Numbered from the stretch's first letter, positions 3,057 through 64,000 are shown. The stretch: 64,000 nucleotides of DNA from an uncultured bacterium (GCA_963700155.1 OY969472.1:517059-581058); one strand, 5' to 3'. The notes: generated from the sequence alone by a model not told the origin. A program made the numbers and translations.

Positions 3057-4571
3057 TTAGTTGACGATGTCAACTCTATAGCTCAAAGCTTCAGCAATAT
3101 GTTTTTCTTCAACTTTTTTTAAACCTTCTAAGTCGGCAATTGTTCGGGCAACCCGAAGAATTCTAAAATATGATCTTGCTGATAAATTCATTTTCCTTAC
3201 AGCCATATCTAACAATTGCCGAGAAGATAAATCTAATTCTATATATTTGAAAATATCTTTTTGCTTAATTTCTGAATTAGAAAAGATATTTTCATTTTCA
3301 AACCTTCTTAATTGAATCTCTTTGGCTTTTTTAACTCTAACTTTAATTTTCTCAGAACATTCAGATTCCTTATTTTCAAATAACTTATTATTTTCAACTT
3401 TTGGTACATTTATTAAAAGATCTATTCTATCCAAAATTGGTCCTGAAATTCTTTTTTGATATTTGATAACTTCACCTTGAGTACAAGTACAATGCCTTAT
3501 TGGGTCACCTCTGTAACCACATTTGCATGGGTTCATTGCTGCAACTAAAGTAAAGCTTGCCGGAAAAGTTAAAGAAGCAGAGGCTCTAGAAATTGTTACA
3601 ACTTTATCTTCTAAAGGCTGTCTTAAAGCTTCTAAAGATTGAGAAGTAAACTCTGGAAATTCATCTAAAAATAAAATACCTCGATGAGCTAAAGATATTT
3701 CTCCAGGGCGGGGGATTGCTCCCCCGCCCACAAGAGCTACTTGAGAAGAAGTATGATGCGGCGACCTGAAAGGTCGCCGCAAAACCAATGGAGAATCTTT
3801 TAAAGTCATTCCCGCAACACTATATATTCTTGTAACTTCAAGTGATTCTTCCAATGTCATATCAGGTAGAATTGAAGGAAGACATTTAGAAAGTAAAGTT
3901 TTTCCAGAACCTGGAACTCCAGAAAGCAAAATATTATGACCACCTGCTGCAGCAATTTCCATGGCTCTTTTGGCATGTTCTTGACCTTTAACTTGTGCAA
4001 AGTCATATTCGTAATTTTCAATAACATTAGAATCAAGATCTTTTACTTTTGGTTTTATTCTAATAATTCCGCTGAAATGAGCAATTAATTCACTAAGAGT
4101 TTCGACTGGATAAATTTTTATTCCATCAACAAGACTTGCTTCATCAGCATTCTCAAATGGTATATACACTTCTTCGAAACCAAGATTTTTTATATGATCA
4201 ACAATAGGTAAAATTCCATGAACAGGCCTAAGCCTTCCATCCAAAGCTAATTCACCAATAAAAAGTTTCTTTTCTGTATCAATTTTTATCTGTTCCGAAG
4301 CAATTAAATATCCAATAGCTAATGGAAGGTCATAACTAGGACCTGTTTTTATTAATTCGGCGGGAGCTAAATTCATTATAATCTGCATAGGTATAAAGCT
4401 CCCGCCAGAATTTTTAATCGCCGAAGGGATTCTATCTTTAGCTTCTTGTATTGACTTATCTGCAAGGCCTACAATAGAGAAGAAGTTTGTACCTTTTCGA
4501 TAATCAACTTCAACTTCTACAATTTTACAGTCTAGACCTAAGAGAGTAGCGGTATATAATTTTGCCAACAT
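3057..4571 (-). CDS. comM: Mg-chelatase-like AAA+ protein ComM/YifB
   Basis: Walker A LSGVPGSGKT, RPFRSPHH, VGGG..PRPGEISLAHRGILFLDEFPEF, C-terminal ARSYFRILRVARTIADL. Confidence 0.9.
   Translation of the reverse strand: MLAKLYTATLLGLDCKIVEVEVDYRKGTNFFSIVGLADKSIQEAKDRIPSAIKNSGGSFIPMQIIMNLAPAELIKTGPSYDLPLAIGYLIASEQIKIDTEKKLFIGELALDGRLRPVHGILPIVDHIKNLGFEEVYIPFENADEASLVDGIKIYPVETLSELIAHFSGIIRIKPKVKDLDSNVIENYEYDFAQVKGQEHAKRAMEIAAAGGHNILLSGVPGSGKTLLSKCLPSILPDMTLEESLEVTRIYSVAGMTLKDSPLVLRRPFRSPHHTSSQVALVGGGAIPRPGEISLAHRGILFLDEFPEFTSQSLEALRQPLEDKVVTISRASASLTFPASFTLVAAMNPCKCGYRGDPIRHCTCTQGEVIKYQKRISGPILDRIDLLINVPKVENNKLFENKESECSEKIKVRVKKAKEIQLRRFENENIFSNSEIKQKDIFKYIELDLSSRQLLDMAVRKMNLSARSYFRILRVARTIADLEGLKKVEEKHIAEALSYRVDIVN
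3143..3157. repeat. 6-bp GC-rich hairpin inside comM
   Basis: TTCGGG-CAA-CCCGAA. Confidence 0.8.
3706..3729. repeat. 10-bp GC hairpin inside comM
   Basis: GGGCGGGGGA-TTGC-TCCCCCGCCC. Encodes the conserved GGGAIPRPG segment. Confidence 0.9.
3757..3781. repeat. 9-11-bp GC hairpin inside comM
   Basis: GCGGCGACC-TGAAA-GGTCGCCGC. Encodes the conserved RRPFRSP segment. Confidence 0.9.
4359..4406. repeat. 10-bp GC-rich inverted repeat, 28-nt spacer, inside comM
   Basis: GGCGGGAGCT (4359-4368) / AGCTCCCGCC (4397-4406). Confidence 0.9.
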
Positions 4572-13201: not shown

Positions 13202-14431
13202 ATGTACAAAATTAATATGCGAAAAAAAATATTAATAAGCTTTATCTTTTTACAAGTTATTTTAATATTAGGCTCAGGTTTTGTAAGTGCTGATGATATT
13301 CAAAGCTTATCCACTCTTAATATTGACACTTCTATCACAGTAAAAGATACTACTGGTTTTGGAGATCCCACACAGATTATTGTTACTCCTGTTTTTATTA
13401 ATAATGGAACAGAAGTAAACACAGATAAATGGGTTAGAGGTATTTATTATTACACTATCGATAAATTAGGATTTCAAAACATTCCTTTTCATTATTTAAT
13501 TACAGAAGATGGTGGAGTTTTTAAAGGTAACAGCTCAGGTGATGAGAAAAAAATTAACATAGAAGGAATTGGCGATAATGCAGTTGTAGTTGGATATTTA
13601 AGTACAGATGAGGCGGGCGCTATAGCGCCCGCCTCAGAACAACCATTATCAAATCTGCTGCTAAATATAGCTAATCAAGATTCTATAAATCCTGAAAATA
13701 TATCAGCAAGTGGAATAAATTTTATTAAAGATAGTTCAAGCAATACAATAACAATTCAAAAAGCTAAAGTTGGGAGTGAGTGGAGTATAGGTATTAATAA
13801 AATTGTAAATAATATTAAAAATAAGTATTCTCCAATTACAAAAAAATATAGCGTTGAAATAACTCAGGTTACATTACCAACAAACGAAATAACACCTGGT
13901 GATGAAGCTACAGTCTCGATTAAAATAAAAAATACTGGTAAGAATGGATTTTATAGTGGTGCTAATTCTGAAATACTTTTAACAAAAGATAATGGAATTT
14001 CCAGCAACTTCTATATAAATAATACATGGCTCAGCCAAACTCAAACTGGAATAATGTCAGATGGTATATCTCTTCTCCCAGGTGAAGAAAAAGGGTTTGA
14101 TTTTAAAGTCAAAGCTCCACTGGCAACCGGAGATTATTCAGAAAACTTTATTTTGAAAACTGCAGGTGGAACTACTATAAAAAGTAACAAAAATATTGAG
14201 TTAAAAATTAAGTTAAAAAAAACTAATAAACAAATTATTGAGATAAAAACAAGCTATGATTATGTAAATGTAAGAAGCAAACCTTATGATTCAGCCCCTG
14301 TTTTAAGAAAAGTTACTGCAGGAGAAAGATATTTCCTTCTAGATCTAAATGAAGATACCCTTTGGGCAAAAATTGACTTAGGGGGTGGAGTAGAAGGTTA
14401 CCTTCCCGCTTGGGATTTGAAATATATTTAA
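13202..14431 (+). CDS. secreted cell-wall-associated protein: amidase_2/PGRP-like N-domain, Ig-like middle domain, C-terminal SH3b
   Basis: Signal/TM N-terminus. IPFHYLITEDGGVFKGN resembles amidase_2. C-terminal VNVRSKPYDSAPVLRKVTAGERYFLL..WAKI is SH3b-like. Confidence 0.5.
   Translation: MYKINMRKKILISFIFLQVILILGSGFVSADDIQSLSTLNIDTSITVKDTTGFGDPTQIIVTPVFINNGTEVNTDKWVRGIYYYTIDKLGFQNIPFHYLITEDGGVFKGNSSGDEKKINIEGIGDNAVVVGYLSTDEAGAIAPASEQPLSNLLLNIANQDSINPENISASGINFIKDSSSNTITIQKAKVGSEWSIGINKIVNNIKNKYSPITKKYSVEITQVTLPTNEITPGDEATVSIKIKNTGKNGFYSGANSEILLTKDNGISSNFYINNTWLSQTQTGIMSDGISLLPGEEKGFDFKVKAPLATGDYSENFILKTAGGTTIKSNKNIELKIKLKKTNKQIIEIKTSYDYVNVRSKPYDSAPVLRKVTAGERYFLLDLNEDTLWAKIDLGGGVEGYLPAWDLKYI
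13609..13636. repeat. 28-bp perfect GC-rich palindrome inside the amidase-like/SH3b gene
   Basis: TGAGGCGGGCGCTATAGCGCCCGCCTCA. Encodes ..DEAGAIAPASE.. Confidence 0.95.
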
Positions 14432-14442
14432 TAAAATTCTAA

Positions 14443-15930
14443 ATGCCAAAGGTAAAAATAATACTAATTATTGTTTTTGTGCTTTCTTTTTTTGTTAGTT
14501 TATTGCTTTTTCTAAAGTTTAATACTGTTGGATTTGAACAATCATTTAGGGCATATTTGGCATGGTATAACCCGACTGATGATAATTTAAAAAATTTCTA
14601 TGATATTTCGACTAGTCAAAATTTTTTATCTTCATTAAATTTTGAAAATCAGACTTTTAAAAACGGGACTGAATTGTTTGATTTCTTAAGGAATGAACAA
14701 AAGACAAACAATTCAGTCCCCGCAGTAGCTAAAGATAATCGAGACAGCAAAGTTCCAATTCAATTTGATGAAGAGAATATTGACGATACAAACCTTCCTC
14801 AGAAAATTACTTATGTATCACCTGGAGTTCTTGGATACTATGTATATAATTATGATCTAGTAAGATTCTCTCCTGATAAAAATACTCTTGAAAGCAAATA
14901 TTTAAATTTAAAAGAGAGTACTATTGATCCTATTTCAAAAAAGAATGTTACTGGTACAAAAGATTTAAAAACAGCAAAGACAGAAGTTAATAGTTATTTT
15001 AATAAACTTATAACTGATGTTGGCAATACAAACACATATGATGGCTTAACAAAAGAGAGTTTTAAAAAACTTGAAAACCACGAGGTTCTTGAAAATATTT
15101 CAGTTAATTCAATAAATTTTGTTGAAAAGAACTTTAAAGAAACTGAATTAAAAGATAACAAATTAATTATTGGAACGATAAATATTCACTTAGAAAACTG
15201 TTTTAAAGATTTTTCAGAAGATTTGAGTTTTTCTATCAATACCGGTGACATTCAAATTAATGACTTAAATGATTTTGTAAGTAACTTATGTAAAAAGCAA
15301 TTCGTTAAAGTTAATGGGGTAATTACCGGAACTTGTACTGATTGTACTTATTATCCAGCTGATAAATGGCATGCTTTAAGATCTGACTATACTCCCAAAA
15401 CTCAATTGATTGATTTCGCTCCGGGAGGACAATATATTAATACACAAGCATATAACGACTTTAAAGATTTATACAACGCAGCAAAAGCAGATGGAATATA
15501 TATTTATGTAACTTCAGGCTATCGTTCTTACAATACTCAAGTTGCGACATATCAAGGCTGGGTAAACACTGAACTTGCTGCTGGTTATTCTTTGTCTGAG
15601 GCAGAAGCTATTGCTAATACTTATTCAGCTCTTCCTGGGTACTCAGAGCACCAGCTTGGAACAGCGTTAGATTTAAATGGAGCAGGATGTGAAATTTCTG
15701 ATGGATATTGTTCAACAAACGAAACAATCTGGAACTGGCTTGCGGAAAATGCTTATAAATATGGGTTTGCACAATCATACCCTGAAGGAAAAGAGTCAAT
15801 TACAGGATATACCACCGAAAGGTGGCATTACAGGTGGATTGGGAAAGACTTAGCTGAAGAATATAAAAAAGCTGGAGGAGGAACAAAAATTACTTTAAAT
15901 GTATTTTTATTGAATAAAGGATTATATTAA
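14443..15930 (+). CDS. D-alanyl-D-alanine carboxypeptidase, peptidase M15B (VanY-like), membrane-anchored
   Basis: N-terminal TM. C-terminal SGYRSYNTQ, GYSEHQLGTALDL, ERWHYRW zinc-site motifs. Confidence 0.8.
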   Translation: MPKVKIILIIVFVLSFFVSLLLFLKFNTVGFEQSFRAYLAWYNPTDDNLKNFYDISTSQNFLSSLNFENQTFKNGTELFDFLRNEQKTNNSVPAVAKDNRDSKVPIQFDEENIDDTNLPQKITYVSPGVLGYYVYNYDLVRFSPDKNTLESKYLNLKESTIDPISKKNVTGTKDLKTAKTEVNSYFNKLITDVGNTNTYDGLTKESFKKLENHEVLENISVNSINFVEKNFKETELKDNKLIIGTINIHLENCFKDFSEDLSFSINTGDIQINDLNDFVSNLCKKQFVKVNGVITGTCTDCTYYPADKWHALRSDYTPKTQLIDFAPGGQYINTQAYNDFKDLYNAAKADGIYIYVTSGYRSYNTQVATYQGWVNTELAAGYSLSEAEAIANTYSALPGYSEHQLGTALDLNGAGCEISDGYCSTNETIWNWLAENAYKYGFAQSYPEGKESITGYTTERWHYRWIGKDLAEEYKKAGGGTKITLNVFLLNKGLY

Positions 15931-24112: not shown

Positions 24113-24349
24113 ATGTTTAAATCAATTGCAAAATTTTTAATAAAAACTTACCAGAAATTGTTTTCTTTCGATCACTCTTTTTGGGCGTCTTGGGTTGGAA
24201 TGCCTGTTTGCAGGTTTACACCAACATGCTCACAATATACTTATGAAGCTATTGATAAGTACGGGGTTTTTAAAGGAAGTTTTATTGGGTTTAAAAGAAT
24301 TTTAAGGTGTAATCCTTTTACAAAAGGCGGGTATGATCCGGTTCCTTAA
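24113..24349 (+). CDS. yidD: membrane protein insertion efficiency factor YidD
   Basis: [33 protein letters not shown]. Confidence 0.85.
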
Positions 24350-25131
24350 GAAATTCCTTTAAAAACCCCTACCTCATCATTATTTATAGAAACTATATCT
24401 ACTTTAAATCTTTTAGAAGCTTTTATTAACTCAGTTTTATAAGTTAGTTTTGAAACATAATCTTCTAAAGATTTCAAAATTCCTAAATCTTTACCAATTA
24501 TGATGTATTCTTTTCCATTTATTTTATTATCTGCTGCTCCAAATTTATTTCTTTTCTTATGATCAGGACTTCTTTTTATTAGTAAAGCATTCTTGTTTCT
24601 TAAATTAAATTTTTGATTAAAAAACGAATCACTATCTTTAAATCTAGATTCCCAAGATTGATCACCTTTGGAAACTATGATGTTGGGCAGATTAATTTCA
24701 TAATCCTTTATCTTTTCTTCTGATAAATAATTTTTTAATAATTCAAGAATATACACACTTCTTAAAAAACTTGTATCTAGCTTAAAATTTTTAAGTTTAA
24801 TTATATTTCCGTGTTTTATATCCCCTTTGTAATACTTCCTAATATTAATACCGGATTGGATATTTGTTGGGTTAAATATGTTAGAAAAATACTGGTAAAA
24901 ATCGATATTATATTCTAAAAAATCTATAAACTCCTTTTTAAGATAGATTGGTATATTTGTTTGTGCTGAGTTAAATTTTTCTGCAGATGAATTTTTAACA
25001 TTATGATTTAATTCTGATAAAAATTCATCCAAAATAAAATGAATATTCTTTAAATGTTTTTGCTTTACCTCTTTATTTGTTTTTAATTTTAAAACTCTTG
25101 GGCCAAAATCAATTAAATACTCGTAAATCAT
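24346..25131 (-). CDS. hypothetical protein
   Basis: 261-aa Lys/Asn-rich ORF. No confident motif. Confidence 0.4.
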
Positions 25132-29451: not shown

Positions 29452-30215
29452 AAGTTTTAGACCAAGAAACAAAATTTGCACATTTAGGAAAGCCTGGGAC
29501 AGCTTTTACTCCTGGGTTTCAACGTAGATTGGACATGATAACTAAACTTGTTGATTTTAAAGATAAAAAAATTCTTGATCTAGGTTGTGGTGAAGGGGTG
29601 TGGCTTTCAAAGTTTGCAGAATTTACAAGTCCGGAAAATATTTATGGAAGTGAATATGATGGGGAGCAGGTTCAGTCTTTGAAAGCCACACCTTTAAAAA
29701 CTTCAAAAGGAGAAATCCCTTCAGAAAATATTGTTCAATGTCCAGGAGAAGATTTAGCATTTGAAGATAATTTTTTTGATATAGTTTTTCAAAATGAAGT
29801 TCTTGAACATGTGCAGGATGATGTTCAAACTTTAAAAGAATCATTAAGAGTTTTAAAACCAGAAGGAAAGTTAATAATTTTTACTCCAAATCGGGGCTGG
29901 CCTTTTGAACAGCACGGAATGTTTCTTAATGGAAAATATTATTGGGGTAACATTCCACTACTGCCTTGGATGCCAGCCCCGATTTATAAAAAGTTCGCAC
30001 CTCATGTCCGAAATTATTCTAATGGTGTGTTAAAACAAAAAATAAAAGAAGCTGGCGGAAAGATTGTTTATCATACTCATATATTCCCAGGGTTTGATGG
30101 AGCAGTTAGAAGGTTTGGGATTTTAGGGAAAATTCTTCAGAAATTTTTCTTTGTCCTTGAAAAAACACCTCTAAATTTCTTCGGAATTAGCCATCTCGTT
30201 ATTATCACCAAATGA
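29442..30215 (+). CDS. class I SAM-dependent methyltransferase
   Basis: Motif I ILDLGCGEGVW, FDIVFQNEVLEHV, post-II LKPEGKLIIFTPN. Confidence 0.8.
   Translation: MFMKVLDQETKFAHLGKPGTAFTPGFQRRLDMITKLVDFKDKKILDLGCGEGVWLSKFAEFTSPENIYGSEYDGEQVQSLKATPLKTSKGEIPSENIVQCPGEDLAFEDNFFDIVFQNEVLEHVQDDVQTLKESLRVLKPEGKLIIFTPNRGWPFEQHGMFLNGKYYWGNIPLLPWMPAPIYKKFAPHVRNYSNGVLKQKIKEAGGKIVYHTHIFPGFDGAVRRFGILGKILQKFFFVLEKTPLNFFGISHLVIITK
29888..29985. repeat. 14-bp inverted repeat, 70-nt spacer, inside the SAM-methyltransferase gene
   Basis: AAATCGGGGCTGGC (29888-29901) / GCCAGCCCCGATTT (29972-29985). Confidence 0.9.
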
Positions 30216-47810: not shown

Positions 47811-48800
47811 TTACTGATTTAGGTTTAAGTTAACCCAAGTATTAAAGACATCTAAGGAATTATTTTTTGGATCAATTAACCCAGTGGTTTTAAAGGGTTT
47901 AGGATAATTATTTGAGTCATACAAAAATGGCCAGATAATGAATTTCATATGTAATGATTTTGATAAATTCGGGATCATCTCTACATACTTGATTTGTTCT
48001 TCTGCAGAACTTTCCCATCCAGAAATTCCTTCATCTTTAAACCATGCAGTTTCTGTAATTGCAATTGGCTTATCTGTTTTTGCAGAAATAACGCTCCAAT
48101 AATCTGAAGGAATTTCTGACGGATCTTTATAAATTAATCCTGGATAAGTTGTAAATGCTAAAAAATCAGCATTATCAAATTTTGATAATATTTCCCATTG
48201 TGTTTTTGTTTCATCATTTACTCCACCAAATAATCCGCCGTTTAAGCCTTTAAGATTTTCATATTGAAACACTGTGAATATCTGAGTCTCAGGACTTGTT
48301 GTTTTTACTAATTCATAAAGCTGGTTAAACCATGTGCTGAATCTATCTAAGTCACCTGATAACTCTTTATTAATTTCATTTCCGAATCCAAGATATTTAG
48401 GATTATATGTTTTCACAAATTGAACAATTGCTTTGTTATATTCATTTTCTTGTATAAGTGAAGGGATCTCTTTAACACCGATAATAATTACCGGGGTTAA
48501 GTTGTATGAAGGAGCGGCTTTCATTAAGAAAGCCGCTCCTGAGTTCTCATCTAAAATGTCAGAAATATTTCCTGCCCAAGATACTACTTTGCAGCATTCT
48601 TTTGTTTTTGTAAAGAAATCGTCAATTCCAGATTGACTATAATCATTAGGTGATAAACTAAGTCCTTTTTGAGTTGATTCTGAAGTATTTTGAACTAAAT
48701 TTGAATTTCTGCTATTTAAGAATAATCCAATTATTAAAACAATAATTAGACTAACAACAAGGATTCCAATAAAGATTGAGATTAATAATTTCTTATTCAT
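47811..48800 (-). CDS. membrane-anchored clan GH-A (TIM-barrel) glycoside hydrolase-like protein
   Basis: FGNEINKE (acid/base NE) and ITETAW (nucleophile E) motifs. I moved the start to MNKKLL (48800) because the ORF-track start at 48902 runs into tRNA-Arg. Confidence 0.5.
   Translation of the reverse strand: MNKKLLISIFIGILVVSLIIVLIIGLFLNSRNSNLVQNTSESTQKGLSLSPNDYSQSGIDDFFTKTKECCKVVSWAGNISDILDENSGAAFLMKAAPSYNLTPVIIIGVKEIPSLIQENEYNKAIVQFVKTYNPKYLGFGNEINKELSGDLDRFSTWFNQLYELVKTTSPETQIFTVFQYENLKGLNGGLFGGVNDETKTQWEILSKFDNADFLAFTTYPGLIYKDPSEIPSDYWSVISAKTDKPIAITETAWFKDEGISGWESSAEEQIKYVEMIPNLSKSLHMKFIIWPFLYDSNNYPKPFKTTGLIDPKNNSLDVFNTWVNLNLNQ
48510..48540. repeat. 13-bp perfect hairpin with a 5-nt loop, inside the GH-A-like gene
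   Basis: AGGAGCGGCTTTC-ATTAA-GAAAGCCGCTCCT. Confidence 0.95.
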
Positions 48801-58034: not shown

Positions 58035-58445
58035 ATGGAAGGAACAAAACTAACAAATCTTAAATCCGGATTGGTTCAAATAGAAAGATTTAATGATAGA
58101 CAAAGGATAATGTTTATAGAAAACCCAGATCTGTATAGATTTTTAATTAATGTTTGCCAAGATCAATATAAAAGAAAAGACACTATACGATATAAAGATG
58201 AAATAATTTATAGACATTACATTAAAGAAGCTGAGGTTAAATTATGGAGAGTATTGCGATTAATAGAAAATATTCCGAATATTGTAAATTTGAGAGATGA
58301 AGGAATAAAGCAAAGGGATCTTCTTGGAATGTACTTTTCTGAAGCAATTTTACCAATTTTATCTGAAATTAATCCTCTTGTTTTAGCATTTATATGTAGT
58401 AATAGAGAAGAACAAATGGAAAATGTTTTGCAAAAAGAAGCGTAA
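58035..58445 (+). CDS. hypothetical protein, member 1 of a tandem three-paralog family
   Basis: NPDLYRFLINVCQD and MYFSEAILPILSEINPLVLAFI match the two downstream ORFs. Confidence 0.5.
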   Translation: MEGTKLTNLKSGLVQIERFNDRQRIMFIENPDLYRFLINVCQDQYKRKDTIRYKDEIIYRHYIKEAEVKLWRVLRLIENIPNIVNLRDEGIKQRDLLGMYFSEAILPILSEINPLVLAFICSNREEQMENVLQKEA

Positions 58446-58507
58446 AAAGCAGGGAAGAAATTTTGCTTGAGGTGTTAATATTTAAATAGATTTATTAAGA
58501 AAATTTT

Positions 58508-58945
58508 ATGTCAGATACAAGAATGGATGAACAATGTCATGAGAATAGATTGAATTTAGGTCTAACGAATTTTAATGAGTTAAACTCAAATCAAAAGTCA
58601 TACTTAATTAAACATCCAGTTATTTACCAGCAGTTATCTACAATTTGTATCGATGCAGCTATGGGTAATATTGATGAGATTTTATCTATTGAATTCAGAA
58701 AAGCTGCACAAGTATTCGACAGGATTATTGATGCTATAGCTTTTCAATTTACATATATATACTCAAAATACAACCCTGGAGAAGAAAGCTTTGCAGATTT
58801 CTTTGATATAACAATAAGAGATATTCTTGTTAAAGGAAATATATCTCCAGAAGTAATAGAACTATTAAATAGTGACTCTGTATTGGAAAGAATAATTAAA
58901 GCTCTCGAAGATGAGAATCCTGGAACTCAAATTCCTGAGTGTTGA
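58508..58945 (+). CDS. hypothetical protein, member 2 of the tandem family
   Basis: KHPVIYQQLSTICIDA and DFFDITIRDILVKGNISPEVIELL. Confidence 0.5.
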   Translation: MSDTRMDEQCHENRLNLGLTNFNELNSNQKSYLIKHPVIYQQLSTICIDAAMGNIDEILSIEFRKAAQVFDRIIDAIAFQFTYIYSKYNPGEESFADFFDITIRDILVKGNISPEVIELLNSDSVLERIIKALEDENPGTQIPEC

Positions 58946-58999
58946 ATATAGCTAAGTATAAATGCTAATATCCCAGTATATTTGTAAAACAATTAAATT

Positions 59000-59440
59000 A
59001 TGGATAATTTTGATCTTGATTGGTTAAAAACAATAACTTTGGAATGGTTCTCATATACTTTGGAACAAAAAGCTTCATTTGTTAAAAATTTTAATTTATT
59101 TCAAGAGCTTTGTATTGACTGTATGCTTATGCATCAGAATCAGGTTAAGCAGTTCAGTGTAAATGAAGGTGAATCTTCAAGTTATTCAAGAGCAGCTGAT
59201 AAATTTAAAGATATTTATCTAAAGTGTAAGGATTTTATGTCTGAAAATAAAGTGTCCGATTATTCTTCACAAGATGAGTTCTATAGAAAGATTTCAAACT
59301 TTTTTGATGAATCGATACTTCCAATAATTCAAGACATTAATAATTTATATCCTGAAGTAGTGAGATTCTTACGTGATAATAATGTTGAAGAATCTATTGG
59401 TGTGAAATTTAATAAACAAAAAGTAAATCAGGAATCTTAA
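59000..59440 (+). CDS. hypothetical protein, member 3 of the tandem family
   Basis: KNFNLFQELCIDCM and NFFDESILPIIQDINNLYPEVVRFL. Confidence 0.5.
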   Translation: MDNFDLDWLKTITLEWFSYTLEQKASFVKNFNLFQELCIDCMLMHQNQVKQFSVNEGESSSYSRAADKFKDIYLKCKDFMSENKVSDYSSQDEFYRKISNFFDESILPIIQDINNLYPEVVRFLRDNNVEESIGVKFNKQKVNQES

Positions 59441-59562
59441 TACTCTCTATCTTTGTCAGAACTTTGTAAAAACTCTATGGTAAGATGTTACAGCCGGATT
59501 TTAAAAATGAGTATACTTGCTATAGAATAATCTCCGACATATAAATCTTAAACTAAGAGTTG

Positions 59563-61710
59563 ATGCTTGATCTAAAAATTCTCAATTCACCACAAAAAGA
59601 TGCGGTAGAAGCTACTGACGGTCCAGTATTAGTTTTGGCCGGCGCGGGAAGCGGTAAAACTAGAGTTTTGACTTATAGAATTGCCTATATTTTAGATTCA
59701 GGACTCGCCGGCCCTGATAATATATTGGCTATGACTTTCACAAATAAAGCAGCCGCAGAAATGAAAGAGAGAATAAAAGCTCTTTTAGAATCAACAGATA
59801 TGCAGTCGCCAATCTCAAATTTGTTCTGGATGGGAACTTTTCATTCAATCTGCGTAAAGATTTTAAAGATGAACGGTCAACTAGTAGGAATTGGACGAAA
59901 TTTTACAATTTATGATTCTGCAGATCAGGTTGTTGCAGTAAAAGAAGCAATGAAGCGATTAGATATATCAATCAAGGATTTTAATCCAAATGCTGTTCAT
60001 TCATATATTTCATCTGCGAAAAATGAGCTTGTTGATGCTGAAATGTACAATTCTTATGCACAAGGATATTTTCAACAGGTAGTTGCAAAGATATATCCTG
60101 TCTATCAAAAGGTTTTGAGGGAAAATAATGCGGTTGATTTTGATGATCTACTTTTTTATACAGTTCAGCTGTTTAGAGAAAATAAGAATATTTTAGAGTT
60201 TTACCAAGATAAGTTTAAATATATTTTAGTTGATGAATATCAGGATACTAATCACGCACAATATATTTTGATTAATATGTTAGCCGAAAAGTATAGAAAT
60301 ATCTGTTGTGTAGGGGACGATGATCAGAGTATCTATGCTTTCAGGGGTGCAACAATAAAAAATATTTTAAATTTTGAAAAAGATTATCCGGAATCAAAAG
60401 TAATAAAGTTAGAGCAGAACTATAGGTCTACTAAAAAGATTTTAGAAGCTTCGCATCAAGTCATTAGCAAGAATAAAGGTAGAAAAGAGAAAAAGCTTTG
60501 GACTGAAAATGATGATGGCGAACAAATAACTTTGTATACAGCATCAAATGAAATTAATGAGGCAAACTGGATTGTTAAAAAGATTATAGAATTGAGCAAA
60601 GATATGGATTTAAGTAATTTTGCAGTTTTATATAGAACAAATGCTCAGTCAAGAAGTTTAGAAGAAGCATTTATTCAAGAAGCTTTACCCTATAGAATTG
60701 TCGGAGGCCTTCGCTTTTATGACAGAAAAGAAATTAAAGACACTCTCTCTTATTTAAAAATTATTTATAACCCAAAAGATAATAAAAGCCTGGAACGTAT
60801 TATCAATGTTCCAAAGAGAGGGGTTGGTGATAAAACTGTTCAAGGTTTCGAAGCGAAGGCCTCCGAACAAAATAAAAGTGCAGTTGAATATCTTTTAGAA
60901 AACTCTGAAGAAATAACGAATACTGGACTCTTAAATTTTTCATTTATAATTCGAGATCTTTTTGAAAAATCCAAAGAATTAAATATTGTTGAACTTATTA
61001 ATTATATTCTTGAAAAAACAGGTTATATAAAAATGCTTGAAGATGGAACTTTAGAGAATGAATCCAGAATTGAAAATTTGAAGGAGCTTATCTCTGTAGC
61101 TTCGGCTTTTGAAGATGAAACACCGGAAGAAGGTTTAGAAAAATTCCTTGATGATGTAAGTCTTCTTGAAGGTGCAGGGGAAGAAGATGTTAATGCAAAA
61201 TCTAGTGTTACTTTGATGACAATTCATGCAGCAAAAGGTTTGGAATTTGAGTATGTTTTTGTAGTTGGAATGGAAGAAAACCTTTTCCCGCATTCGAATT
61301 CACTCATGGATAATAATGAGATGGAAGAAGAGCGAAGGTTAGCTTATGTTGCAATAACAAGAGCTAAAAAAAGATTGTTTTTGACCCATGCAGTAAAACG
61401 AAAATATTTTGGTATTAATCAAAATAATCCTATTTCCAGATTTATTGGTGATATTGATGATGAACTTTTAGAAAAAGATGCAGACTATATGTATGTTGGT
61501 CCAACTGAGGAATATACTTCAAAATCTTATGATGAATCTTATGAATGGATGGATGATCTTCATTTACAAACTGGTGATAAAGTAAAACATGAGTATTTTG
61601 GCAAGGGAACTGTAAAAAGAATTGATGGAACTAATGTTGTTATTGATTTTGGACCTGTTTATGGTGAAAAAGAATTAATGCTTGAATACGCCAAGCTTGA
61701 GAAAATATAA
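59563..61710 (+). CDS. pcrA: ATP-dependent DNA helicase PcrA/UvrD (SF1)
   Basis: AGAGSGKT, TFTNKAA, VDEYQDTN, GDDDQSIYAFRGA, YRS, TIHAAKGLEF, VAITRAK. Confidence 0.92.
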   Translation: MLDLKILNSPQKDAVEATDGPVLVLAGAGSGKTRVLTYRIAYILDSGLAGPDNILAMTFTNKAAAEMKERIKALLESTDMQSPISNLFWMGTFHSICVKILKMNGQLVGIGRNFTIYDSADQVVAVKEAMKRLDISIKDFNPNAVHSYISSAKNELVDAEMYNSYAQGYFQQVVAKIYPVYQKVLRENNAVDFDDLLFYTVQLFRENKNILEFYQDKFKYILVDEYQDTNHAQYILINMLAEKYRNICCVGDDDQSIYAFRGATIKNILNFEKDYPESKVIKLEQNYRSTKKILEASHQVISKNKGRKEKKLWTENDDGEQITLYTASNEINEANWIVKKIIELSKDMDLSNFAVLYRTNAQSRSLEEAFIQEALPYRIVGGLRFYDRKEIKDTLSYLKIIYNPKDNKSLERIINVPKRGVGDKTVQGFEAKASEQNKSAVEYLLENSEEITNTGLLNFSFIIRDLFEKSKELNIVELINYILEKTGYIKMLEDGTLENESRIENLKELISVASAFEDETPEEGLEKFLDDVSLLEGAGEEDVNAKSSVTLMTIHAAKGLEFEYVFVVGMEENLFPHSNSLMDNNEMEEERRLAYVAITRAKKRLFLTHAVKRKYFGINQNNPISRFIGDIDDELLEKDADYMYVGPTEEYTSKSYDESYEWMDDLHLQTGDKVKHEYFGKGTVKRIDGTNVVIDFGPVYGEKELMLEYAKLEKI
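59637..59713. repeat. 8-bp all-GC inverted repeat, 61-nt spacer, inside pcrA (Walker A region)
   Basis: GGCCGGCG (59637-59644) / CGCCGGCC (59706-59713). Confidence 0.85.
60701..60866. repeat. 16-bp perfect inverted repeat, 134-nt spacer, inside pcrA
   Basis: TCGGAGGCCTTCGCTT (60701-60716) / AAGCGAAGGCCTCCGA (60851-60866). Confidence 0.9.
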
Positions 61711-61755
61711 TAACTTCAAATTGATATAATTATCCATAGATAAAGGAGAAAAATA

Positions 61756-61971
61756 ATGACTGCAAAGCAGTTGACAACAATCTCTGGCTTAATTATAGCT
61801 GGTAGTGGTCTATATATGTTGATTTTGTGGGGCTCAATCCCATACTCAGCCTCAGCATTAATTGCAGGATTAGGATTACTTATAGGTGGGCTGATTATTA
61901 CATTTTTAGATCAGATCATTTGGATTCTAGTCAAAATCGGATTAATCGAGGATGATGAAGATTCTGAATGA
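61756..61971 (+). CDS. small two-TM membrane protein
   Basis: 71 aa. Strong SD (AAAGGAG) 8 nt upstream. Confidence 0.5.
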   Translation: MTAKQLTTISGLIIAGSGLYMLILWGSIPYSASALIAGLGLLIGGLIITFLDQIIWILVKIGLIEDDEDSE

Positions 61972-61986
61972 TATTTTGTTCCTTTA

Positions 61987-62010
61987 GGCGCTCCGATTTA
62001 TCGGAGCGCC
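61987..62010 (+). terminator. GC-rich hairpin after the 71-aa ORF (terminator-like, no clear U tract)
   Basis: GGCGCTCCGAT-TT-ATCGGAGCGCC, an 11-bp perfect stem 16 nt after the stop codon. Confidence 0.35.
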
Positions 62011-62095
62011 AGAACCCTATTGTTGTTAGATTTTGGCAGCAATTAATGATATAATGATTATAGACATTTTTTATTCATGTTCTTTGAGGTGTGTA

Positions 62096-62380
62096 ATGAT
62101 TCGACAGAGTATTGGGAAAGCTTTGGGTATGTTTGGGGCAGCAATGCTGCTGCTTCATTTACTCATAACAGCGATCCTGTTCAATGGTCAAGATGACCCA
62201 TTAGGACATCTTGACTTGTCAGGATGGGTAGGATTAATTCTGCCTGTCATTTTGTCGGTTGGTTTGATGATCTACTCAATCTATCTGGTTGAGTTTCATC
62301 AAACTCGAGTTCTAAATCATGATCATGTAACAAAAATCGACTTCGTGGTCAGGCATCGAACTCATCTGCACGTCAGATGA
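62096..62380 (+). CDS. small two-TM membrane protein with a His-rich C-terminal tail; locally elevated GC
   Basis: ATG preceded by GAGGTG. MIRQSIGKALGMFGAAMLLLHLL...HQTRVLNHDHVTKIDFVVRHRTHLHVR. Hand count is about 42% GC against about 30% in the surroundings. Confidence 0.45.
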   Translation: MIRQSIGKALGMFGAAMLLLHLLITAILFNGQDDPLGHLDLSGWVGLILPVILSVGLMIYSIYLVEFHQTRVLNHDHVTKIDFVVRHRTHLHVR

Positions 62381-62396
62381 GACATTGCTTGATCGA

Positions 62397-62458
62397 GGGC
62401 GCTCGCGAAAGAGCTTGGTGACCAAAAGTCCCAGGTGCGAGCGCCCGAAAGGCTTTTT
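62397..62458 (+). terminator. compound GC-rich stem plus short hairpin and T-run downstream of the His-rich ORF
   Basis: GGGCGCTCGC (62397-62406) pairs with GCGAGCGCCC (62437-62446), then GCCCGAAAGGC followed by TTTTTGT. Confidence 0.45.
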
Positions 62459-62774
62459 GTATTTAACACTCTTTGGACTTAAACCCCCTCATACCCACAA
62501 TATATTGAATAACCTATATAATGATGATATAATTAATTATACTTTTATTACCAGGAATGATTATATGTCGCCACTGGTAATTTGAGGATAGCGTAGTATT
62601 AAAAAATACTACAATTAAGATGTTGTGAGAATATCTGAAGATCTAAAGTCTAAAGATAAACATCTTAAAATTCTTTAAAGATAGCTGCAAATGCCTTGCT
62701 GTGGGATAAGATAATATATAAATGTTGTTTTATTCCATAGCAAGGTTAACCAGCTAAAATGCTAAAATAAAACT

Positions 62775-63437
62775 ATGCAATTTGATATATTAACTACATT
62801 CCCAAATTCGTTTTCATACTTCTCTGAAAGTATTATCAAGCGTGCTCAAGATAAAGATTTAATAAAATTAAAAATTCATGATTTAAGAAATTGGGCTACT
62901 GATAAACATAAAACAACAGACGATCATCCATTTGGAGGAAATCCTGGAATGTTGATGAAAATAGAACCAATCTATAAAGCATTAAAAGATTTAGGTGTTT
63001 ATCCTAAACATGATGAAAAAACTAAGGTTGTTTTAACAAGTGCTAAAGGTAATTTATGGAATCAGAAGGTGGCCGTAGATTATTCTAAAAAATTTGATCG
63101 ATTAGTTATAATCTGCGGCCACTATGAAGGCATTGACCATAGAGTAGAGCAATTTTTGATTGATGAAGAAATTTCGGTTGGTAATTATGTTCTTTCTGGA
63201 GGGGAAGTTCCTTCAATGATTATTGTTGATTCGATAACTAGATTAATTGATGGTGTTGTTGGTAATGAAGAGTCGATTGTTGATGAATCTCATTCTTCTG
63301 AACTTGGTGATACTGAATATCCTCAATATACAAGGCCTGCTTCTTTTACTACTGAAGAAGGTAAAACATGGTCAGTTCCAGATGTGCTTCTTTCTGGAAA
63401 TCACAAAGAAATAGAGAAGTGGAAAAAATCCCACTAA
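62775..63437 (+). CDS. trmD: tRNA (guanine37-N1)-methyltransferase TrmD
   Basis: FDILTTFP, GGNPGMLMKIEP, CGHYEGIDHRV, SVGNYVLSGGE. Not flanked by rpsP, rimM or rplS. Confidence 0.9.
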   Translation: MQFDILTTFPNSFSYFSESIIKRAQDKDLIKLKIHDLRNWATDKHKTTDDHPFGGNPGMLMKIEPIYKALKDLGVYPKHDEKTKVVLTSAKGNLWNQKVAVDYSKKFDRLVIICGHYEGIDHRVEQFLIDEEISVGNYVLSGGEVPSMIIVDSITRLIDGVVGNEESIVDESHSSELGDTEYPQYTRPASFTTEEGKTWSVPDVLLSGNHKEIEKWKKSH

Positions 63438-63502
63438 TTTAGATATCTATTTAAAATATACCTACGGCTTCATTTATATAATATCCACCTAGCGCCTATT
63501 AC

Positions 63503-63522
63503 GTTACGTAAATTTACGTAAC
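63503..63522. promoter_or_regulatory. 20-bp perfect palindrome made of two TTACGTAA palindromic octamers 10 bp apart (candidate operator)
   Basis: GTTACGTAAATTTACGTAAC, in the intergenic region between trmD and the next ORF. Confidence 0.35.
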
Positions 63523-63685
63523 ATACTGGTGATTAAGTTGAAAAGTATTGATATTGACTTTTATAGATATTCGTTCTGAATATCATTATCATTGTTAACT
63601 TCTTTAATCCTTTCCTAAATCGGATTTGCTTTATCTTACTTCAATATTCAAATGATATAATAAAAAATAAATTTTTGAGAAAAAC

Positions 63686-64000
63686 ATGAATATTTTTAAT
63701 CAAAATCTATATGAAGAATACTTTAGGCATTTAAGAATTTTGGTTCTTAAAATCTTTCCGAATATAACTTTAAATACTCATAAATATGCTTCAAAGGAAT
63801 TTAATGATTATTCAAATTTTAGGCTAGTCTCCTTAGGTGAGTCTTCGCATGGAGTTTCTGAATTTTTCAAAAATAAATCAAAGATCTCACTAAAACTATT
63901 ATCTCTGGGATACAATAAGATATATTTTGAGGACTCTGAAATAGTTATAAGAAAAGTTAATAAGATAATACAAAACGGTACAAATTCGTCTTTAAAAGAA
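63686..64000 (+). CDS. 5' part of a CDS running off the window; possibly erythromycin-esterase/ChaN-like
   Basis: Open from the ATG at 63686 to the window end. LGESSHGVSEFF resembles the GE(A/S)xHG motif of the erythromycin-esterase family. Weak. Confidence 0.3.
   Translation, partial: MNIFNQNLYEEYFRHLRILVLKIFPNITLNTHKYASKEFNDYSNFRLVSLGESSHGVSEFFKNKSKISLKLLSLGYNKIYFEDSEIVIRKVNKIIQNGTNSSLKE

Follow-up and report, generated by a model that had tools for sequence, protein, structure and literature searches.

A putative orphan-gene cassette with GC-rich hairpins between pcrA and trmD in a reduced Patescibacteria genome

Chromosomal hotspots of accessory genes are sites at which conserved flanks enclose cargo that is unrelated from one lineage to the next. 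The site described here lies in a 64,000-nucleotide (nt) stretch of DNA from an uncultured bacterium (GCA_963700155.1, OY969472.1:517059-581058; hereafter the window, with positions counted from its first letter), in which 1064 nt separate the stop codon of pcrA from the start codon of trmD. This segment, here called the insert, holds two open reading frames (ORFs), p71 and p94, and two GC-rich hairpins, H1 and H2. The insert resembles the known hotspots in its conserved flanks (a transglutaminase gene, pcrA and trmD), in the unrelated cargo found at the same place in each lineage, and in that its own cargo consists of orphan ORFs of atypical composition. However, it is very small (~1 kb), it contains no integrase, tRNA or recognisable mobility gene, and its host is a Patescibacteria genome reduced to 1.1 Mb. 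The insert is a further instance of a familiar phenomenon, the accessory orphan genes of a core-gene hotspot. With moderate confidence, we favour its interpretation as an acquired orphan cassette that codes for a real small membrane protein and whose transcripts would end in hairpins.

Several other described systems invite comparison with the parts of the insert. Intrinsic terminators include hairpin-only variants without a U-tract. Like intrinsic terminators, H1 and H2 are strong GC stem-loops located 3' of stop codons on the coding strand, and a run of five T residues follows H2. In contrast to them, H1 has no U-run, the U-run of H2 is 7 nt off, and the 30-nt interior of H2 contains a second helix. 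Class II holins and pinholins, such as S21 of phage 21, are small proteins with two transmembrane (TM) segments and a charged C-terminal tail. The p94 protein is like them in size, number of TM segments, predicted topology (N and C termini inside), basic tail and orphan-like diversity, a likeness of architecture only; its neighbours, however, are pcrA, p71 and trmD, with no adjacent endolysin or phage genes. Type I toxins (hok, tisB, fst) are typically shorter than 60 amino acids (aa) and have one TM segment. Like them, p94 is small and hydrophobic, has a strongly folded mRNA and would be insulated by hairpins, but it is larger, at 94 aa with two TM helices. Elements of the IS200/IS605 type and PATEs have same-orientation, stem-related hairpins near both ends and no terminal inverted repeats, a pattern that the insert may share. 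Unlike them, the insert has no TnpA or TnpB and no extra copies, its cargo is a membrane-protein ORF, and guide or target sequences are not identifiable. Lastly, an integron attC site, an imperfect palindrome of 57-141 nt, carries conserved R and L boxes and has an integron integrase close by, whereas H1 is perfectly palindromic over 24 nt, and by eye R or L boxes are not obvious in either hairpin.

The slot between pcrA and trmD and its orphan genes

The locus was compared with eight Candidatus Dojkabacteria loci whose PcrA identity is 54-70%. The gene order transglutaminase (- strand), pcrA (+), slot, trmD (+) is kept in all eight. Two of the eight slots are empty: in L007 the pcrA stop and the trmD start overlap (ATGA), and in L089 the two genes are 18 nt apart. 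The remaining six hold unrelated cargo, namely an Amidase_2 gene (L084), three unknown small ORFs (L085), an unknown protein of 363 aa (L086), DUF72 (L087), DUF72 with two small ORFs (L088) and a GNAT acetyltransferase (L090). The GC content of this cargo equals that of its own locus. None of the eight loci contains p94, p71 or a GGCGCTC hairpin like those of the insert, and their cargo contains no GC hairpins. Because the slots of all eight relatives are empty or occupied by unrelated cargo, the 1064 nt are, judged from these loci, cargo specific to this lineage in a slot whose content varies recurrently. A scan of metagenomes for closer relatives with PcrA returned only proteins that are 47-51% identical. 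The insert is identical in sequence in an independent Logan assembly (L001, run ERR11571143), which rules out an artefact of assembly. The GC content of the whole window is ~30%, and those PcrA homologues that carry a source name are all from Candidatus Dojkabacteria, the nearest being 70% identical.

An earlier, sequence-only reading of the window had noted a GC-raised islet at this place, had described it as one gene for a His-rich membrane protein bracketed by two related hairpins, and had proposed either a horizontally acquired or mobile module or a gene insulated by twin terminators. The ORF, its Shine-Dalgarno (SD) sequence and both hairpins were all present where that reading had placed them, and calculation of windowed GC and codon usage put both the islet and p94 outside the host range. 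The GC fraction of 61987-62446 is 0.435, compared with 0.301+-0.033 in other 460-nt windows (z=4.1). This is the maximum of the 64-kb window, the largest value of any other 460-nt window being 0.404. The p94 ORF itself has a GC of 0.421 and a GC at third codon positions (GC3) of 0.404, against 0.193+-0.045 and a maximum of 0.337 in 1159 host windows of 94 codons. In the same windows the codon log-odds score is 0.33+-0.08 with a minimum of 0.026, and that of p94 is -0.03. The extent of the islet had been drawn too narrowly, however, as p71, which belongs to the same GC-raised sequence, had been overlooked. The rise in GC starts in p71 (37% GC, GC3 0.32) and stops just past H2, so that the GC-raised part covers about 61756-62460. 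The codon score of p71 is host-like (0.296) despite its raised GC3, and the leader of trmD is host-like at 28% GC.

Several properties of p94 are those of a coding sequence (CDS). First, its reading frame scores best of the six, and its SD and ATG are well placed. Secondly, an ATG ORF of at least 94 codons was found in 2.8% of dinucleotide shuffles of 62011-62470 (P=0.03). Third, the chi2 of base by codon position is 19.7, compared with 7.3+-4.1 in shuffled ORFs (P=0.012) and 27.7+-12 in host genes. Lastly, p94 contains two hydrophobic 19-residue segments, at about residues 9-29 and 44-66, and two such segments are seen in 0.5% of shuffled ORFs (P=0.005). These statistics make it most likely that p94 is a genuine small membrane protein that is translated. 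Together with the atypical composition, they favour a real CDS that evolved outside the mutational regime of this genome. For a CDS with such a composition, acquisition from a donor of ~40-45% GC would be the simplest reading, and the insert is probably of foreign origin.

Both ORFs are orphans. p94 matched only itself among 5.8e9 protein clusters and in an exhaustive phmmer search of 1.84e9 representatives, and p71 matched only itself among the 5.8e9 clusters. For neither protein was a homologue found in Pfam, PHROGs, PADLOC, NCBIfam, the PDB sequences, an IMG/VR back-translation or a tblastn of 90 loci. The best phmmer hit of p94 in the PDB was an unrelated poxvirus membrane protein (E=0.18). 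AlphaFold2, run with no alignment, modelled p94 as two helices (residues 2-29 and 41-93; pLDDT 78.5), and Foldseek found no match to this model with E<1 in BFVD or the PDB.

The positive-inside rule would place the N and C termini of p94 inside. The protein would then be a helical hairpin whose external loop, NGQDDPLGHLDLSG, is acidic and whose second TM segment is prolonged on the cytoplasmic side by a basic, His-rich helix. Six of its eight His residues are among the last 27 residues, a tail that also has five Arg/Lys. This tail had been taken as a hint of metal binding, but no match to His-rich metal-binding families (CDF tails, RcnA, HupE/UreJ) was found in Pfam or NCBIfam. As a holin, p94 had a best PHROG hit of E=0.32, to a family of unknown function, in addition to the Foldseek result above; as a defence protein, it had no PADLOC match. 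Our guess gives about equal likelihood to a metal-related role and to one as a membrane-active (holin-like or toxin-like) protein or an accessory subunit in the membrane. p71 likewise has two hydrophobic segments, followed by an acidic tail (EDDEDSE). The two proteins thus share a two-TM plan and end in an acidic tail in one case and a basic, His-rich tail in the other; an interaction between them through these complementary charges is pure speculation. They are not recognisable as paralogues (BLASTP E=6.4). A tandem duplication of the two cassettes was also rejected, their DNA alignment scoring no better than shuffles.

Hairpins, transcription units and the trmD leader

The anatomy of the insert is given in Table 1. 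The name pcrA was assigned on the basis of full-length coverage and the Dojkabacteria PcrA homologues, beside a TIGR01073 score below its cut-off.

Table 1. Positions of the insert, its parts and the two flanking core genes in the window
Feature	Position	Strand	Remarks
pcrA	59560-61710	+	TIGR01073 E=1e-261, 870.5 bits, slightly under curated cut-off of 911.2
Whole insert, pcrA stop to trmD start, lineage-specific	61711-62774	+	1064 nt, GC 0.363
P1, extended -10 promoter-like TGATATAAT, 5' of p71	61722-61730	+	Consensus match; putative function
SD of p71, AAGGAG	61743-61748	+
p71, orphan ORF of 71 aa	61756-61971	+
H1, hairpin GGCGCTCCGA-TTTA-TCGGAGCGCC	61987-62010	+	Perfect 10-bp GC stem
P2, extended -10 promoter-like TGATATAAT, 5' of p94; TTGGCA at 62033-62038	62047-62055	+	Putative function
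SD of p94, GAGGTG	62086-62091	+	4 nt before ATG
p94, orphan ORF of 94 aa	62096-62380	+
Run of stem-loops within and at the end of the p94 ORF	62134-62395	+
H2, hairpin with outer stem GGGCGCTCGC/GCGAGCGCCC	62397-62446	+	10-bp GC stem
T5 run, 7 nt past H2 (GAAAGGC TTTTT G)	62454-62458	+
P3, promoter-like site for trmD, TTGAAT-17 nt-TG-TATAAT	62505-62533	+	10/12 matches, TG present
AT-rich, hairpin-packed trmD leader	62542-62746	+	Four stem-loops
trmD	62775-63437	+	NF000648, above cut-off

H1 has a TTTA loop, starts 15 nt past the p71 stop and folds with its flanks at -25.5 kcal/mol (z -4.5 against shuffles); the sequence 3' of it, with no adjoining U-run, is AGAACCCTATTG. H2 starts 16 nt past the p94 stop and folds at -35.6 kcal/mol (z -3.8 against shuffles). 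Its outer stem is a perfect helix of 10 bp, followed by a 6-nt bulge on the 5' side and a 9-pair inner stem (62413-62436). Two hairpins with a common base sequence therefore exist, as had been claimed: GGCGCTC occurs four times in 64 kb, always in the arms of H1 and H2, where 0.70 matches were expected, and 1 of 100 shuffles reached four. It is not a common terminator motif in the window, and the hairpin is absent from about 90 related or unrelated loci. Neither of the two findings that would have counted against the earlier reading, conservation of the segment in place and frequent use of the motif at ordinary terminators, was thus made. The 3' flanks of H1 and H2 also agree (GAGCGCC-A-GAA and GAGCGCC-C-GAA). 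Apart from this and the promoter motif TGATATAAT, there is no DNA likeness between the p71 and p94 cassettes. Because the stems are palindromic, the common core is effectively a single 7-nt coincidence between GC-rich stems, and it is suggestive of common descent but no proof of it. The window contains 13 perfect GC-rich hairpins, and H1 and H2 are the only two that are intergenic.

The extended -10 motif TGATATAAT has five copies in 64 kb, three of which precede p71, p94 and the trmD leader. Together with the hairpins, these putative promoters would divide the region into three transcription units: P1, SD, p71 and H1; P2, SD, p94 and a double stem-loop that includes H2 and ends in five U residues; and P3, leader and trmD. 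The suggestion of a gene insulated by twin terminators fits this anatomy, in which the hairpins lie 15-16 nt past stop codons and a separate promoter-like TGATATAAT precedes each of the two ORFs. Acting on RNA, H1 and H2 would limit read-through between pcrA/p71, p94 and trmD and would protect the 3' ends of the transcripts. From their positions, they are most likely transcript-end hairpins that insulate the units and stabilise 3' ends.

Tested as intrinsic terminators, H1 and H2 show the GC-rich stem-loop 3' of a stop codon and lack a U-tract within 0-2 nt of the stem, and a consensus terminator scan reported neither of them on the + strand. Terminator-like sites differ in number between the region of the insert and the remainder of the window. 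Eight were found in 59000-64000, where 1.6 were expected, whereas canonical terminators with hairpin and U-tract are not enriched in 1-60000 (18 against about 21 expected; 11, 3 and 4 in successive 20-kb parts against about 7). This contrast fits signals that were imported with the insert. The host may use other termination signals; to our knowledge, transcription signals are essentially uncharacterised in this phylum.

The leader of trmD is an AT-rich sequence of about 240 nt (62534-62774) with stem-loops at 62542-62586, 62593-62612, 62615-62668 and 62693-62746, the last with 25 pairs, six of them G-U. Its fold has a z of -9.65 on the + strand and -4.9 on the - strand. A leader of this kind was found in none of the eight relatives, and Rfam returned for it only sub-threshold look-alikes of miRNA hairpins (for example, mir-754 with E=8e-4 and 33.8 bits against a gathering score of 84). 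In the empty slot of L007, trmD is translationally coupled to pcrA. The insert would cut trmD off from pcrA, its AT-rich remainder giving trmD a new promoter and a long structured leader, and P3 plausibly restores the expression of trmD after the break in adjacency.

If this account is true, the insert is a small, clean example of the uptake of orphan genes by a very reduced (1.1 Mb) Patescibacteria genome. It would occupy a recurrent slot, separating two core genes whose translation is otherwise coupled, and would rewire the downstream, essential gene trmD. It also provides a candidate for a small membrane protein and two candidates for hairpin terminators of the U-less kind.

RNA folding, inverted repeats and competing explanations

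The hairpins that bracket p94 had been recognised from the start; that the interior of its transcript is itself packed with hairpins had been missed. The presumed transcript 62060-62470 folds at -152.2 kcal/mol (z -7.8) on the + strand and at -118.3 kcal/mol (z -5.4) on the - strand. Within the p94 ORF there are stem-loops at 62134-62157, 62174-62225 (20 pairs), 62226-62245 and 62261-62305 (18 pairs). A composite stem at 62346-62395 abuts H2, and its inner helix (62361-62381) holds the p94 stop codon. The codons of the His-rich tail lie partly in hairpin arms, TTTCATCAAAC pairing with GTTTGATGA and CTCATCTG with CAGATGAG; the tail His codons may be a by-product of the structure, or the reverse. 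Sequestration of the p94 SD was considered and rejected, as the stem that would cover it is weak (one GC and three GU pairs) and does not appear in the centroid structure. Also overlooked at first was a large excess, throughout the window, of perfect inverted repeats within 300 nt: 14 have arms of at least 14 nt (0.25 expected) and 26 have arms of at least 12 nt (5.4 expected). Thus, hairpin richness is a property of the genome and not of the islet alone.

Several of these observations weigh against an acquired cassette with functional hairpin ends. First, a codon usage outside the host range fits non-coding or very young sequence equally well. Secondly, with no homologues of p94 or p71, neither a donor nor purifying selection is demonstrable. 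Third, the p94 ORF is packed with stem-loops, in whose arms the stop codon and some of the His-rich tail are encoded, so the protein sequence is possibly secondary to the structure. In addition, the general excess of inverted repeats weakens any special reading of H1 and H2, which need not be functional, and with the U-run missing from one and displaced in the other, neither is a canonical intrinsic terminator.

These points lead to three other explanations. An unlikely but serious one is that the insert, largely non-functional or very young, grew in situ by inverted duplications and by template-switch perfecting of quasi-palindromes, a process that would also have produced the genome's excess of inverted repeats, the ORFs being de novo or incidental and the hairpins mutational products instead of terminators. 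The excess of inverted repeats is found also within conserved genes, the repeats occupy different positions in the pcrA genes of the relatives, and the insert is a succession of hairpins whose two ORFs are strict orphans, all of which this explanation would account for. The better folding of the + strand could likewise stem from a C-to-T bias as well as from selection, and a template-switch mechanism for quasi-palindromes has been described (PMC7202029). However, the codon periodicity of p94, its two TM segments and its SD with ATG are well above shuffled expectation, a GC3 of 0.40 is hard to derive from host DNA of 30% GC, and the order promoter, SD, ORF and hairpin is present twice.

Structural RNA genes are typically GC-high in AT-rich genomes, and the sequence 62060-62460 could give an RNA of about 400 nt that is structured and either non-coding or dual-function, the ORF being incidental. 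We regard this as quite unlikely. It would agree with a + strand that folds clearly better than the - strand, with the presence of a promoter-like site of its own and of a 3' hairpin with U-run, and with the occurrence of a chance ORF of such length in about 3% of shuffles. A known RNA gene was rejected, as Rfam 15 gave no match with E<=10 in 61980-62470, and none at gathering thresholds, and ARAGORN found no tRNA or tmRNA. The periodicity and TM content of p94 (P about 0.01 and 0.005) also speak against an incidental ORF, and similarly strong folding occurs inside bona fide genes (for example, pcrA at 60701-60900, with z -10 in a scan of 200-nt windows).

The acquired cassette, to return to the favoured interpretation, had been described as horizontally acquired or mobile. 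A variable, compositionally foreign and insulated small-gene cassette is retained here, and mobility is not. No transposase, integrase or HUH protein was found by Pfam in p94, p71 and the other frames tested, and neither a Y1 HUH TnpA nor multiple copies were seen in the frames tested, the 64-kb window and the fetched loci. The search for other copies of the GGCGCTC hairpins and of the ORF, in 64 kb and in the fetched loci, returned only the originals. A blastn of the insert against phages and plasmids gave no match, and the exact H1 sequence had 0 matches in viral contigs. A 17-mer of H2 had 17 viral matches, some reaching 23 nt, which are irrelevant because all of them are in-frame 'ALAKE(L)' coding in phages of 51-69% GC; their contexts include helicase-like coding of the 'LKALAKELGVPVI...QLNR' type.

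Repeats at the ends of the insert were also considered. The insert, 1061 nt by this measure, lies between the two copies of an 11/12 direct repeat (CAAATTGATATA, 61717-61728; CAATTTGATATA, 62778-62789), which may be a duplication made at insertion. Its right copy is trmD codons 2-5 (MQFDILT), which are conserved in the relatives, it overlaps a promoter-like motif, and with a marginal P of about 0.02-0.05 it was rejected as a target-site duplication. Ends resembling terminal inverted repeats or a MITE (62041-62071 and 62508-62538, 77% complementary) consist of the AT-rich promoter-like TGATATAAT regions and were also rejected. Mobility is therefore unsupported, since no transposase, extra copy or convincing end repeat was found in the 64 kb and the loci searched.

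It is a long shot that the GGCGCTC hairpins are the ends of a new kind of miniature cassette by which orphan genes enter the junctions between core genes in Patescibacteria, or that the p94 locus is a new structured or dual-function RNA of ~400 nt. A miniature hairpin-ended mobile cassette with p94 as cargo, of the IS200/IS605 or PATE type or another GGCGCTC-ended element, is very improbable: same-orientation hairpins with a common 7-nt core and 3' flank (GAGCGCC-N-GAA), a foreign composition, a site in a variable slot and the direct repeat around the whole insert would suit it, but there is no Y1/HUH transposase and no Pfam, PHROG or PADLOC match in the frames tested, no further copy in 64 kb or the related loci and nothing in phages, plasmids or viral contigs, the flanking repeat is marginal, and H1 lies between p71 and p94, which leaves some of the GC-raised part outside the pair of hairpins.

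Further observations in the window

Examples of the inverted repeats are found at 3706-3729, 3757-3781, 4359-4406, 13609-13636, 14665-14720, 24263-24369, 29597-29692, 48510-48540 and 60701-60866. All of the long ones that were compared with the ORF map are inside long conserved ORFs. Their arms owe their high GC to synonymous choices, as in the gene for a ComM-like protein, where GGCGGGGGA/TCCCCCGCC specifies GGG..PRP. The perfect inverted repeat in pcrA (60701-60866) has 16-nt arms, TCGGAGGCCTTCGCTT, ~130 nt apart, and folds with a z of -6.4 to -10. The pcrA genes of L084 and L086 also bear 16-nt inverted repeats, at other positions, and thus the repeats turn over quickly and are not conserved structures. 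The excess points to one of two causes, the perfecting of quasi-palindromes by template switching or selection that acts on nucleic-acid structure. In its wider interest, this excess of GC-rich perfect inverted repeats in conserved genes may outweigh the islet itself.

Another stretch of pcrA, 61299-61397, matched the Rfam family n00280 ('C. difficile sRNA included into helicase gene') with 48.8 bits, where the gathering score is 65.2. Conserved coding sequence of the helicase, rather than an sRNA, is the most likely cause of this sub-threshold match.

On the other side of pcrA, between it and the transglutaminase gene, 58035-59440 contains three unknown ORFs of 136, 145 and 146 aa. They have no Pfam, PHROG or PADLOC match, and their GC is host-like. 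The relatives hold only about 100-200 nt at this place, and by that comparison 58035-59440 is a second lineage-specific insert.

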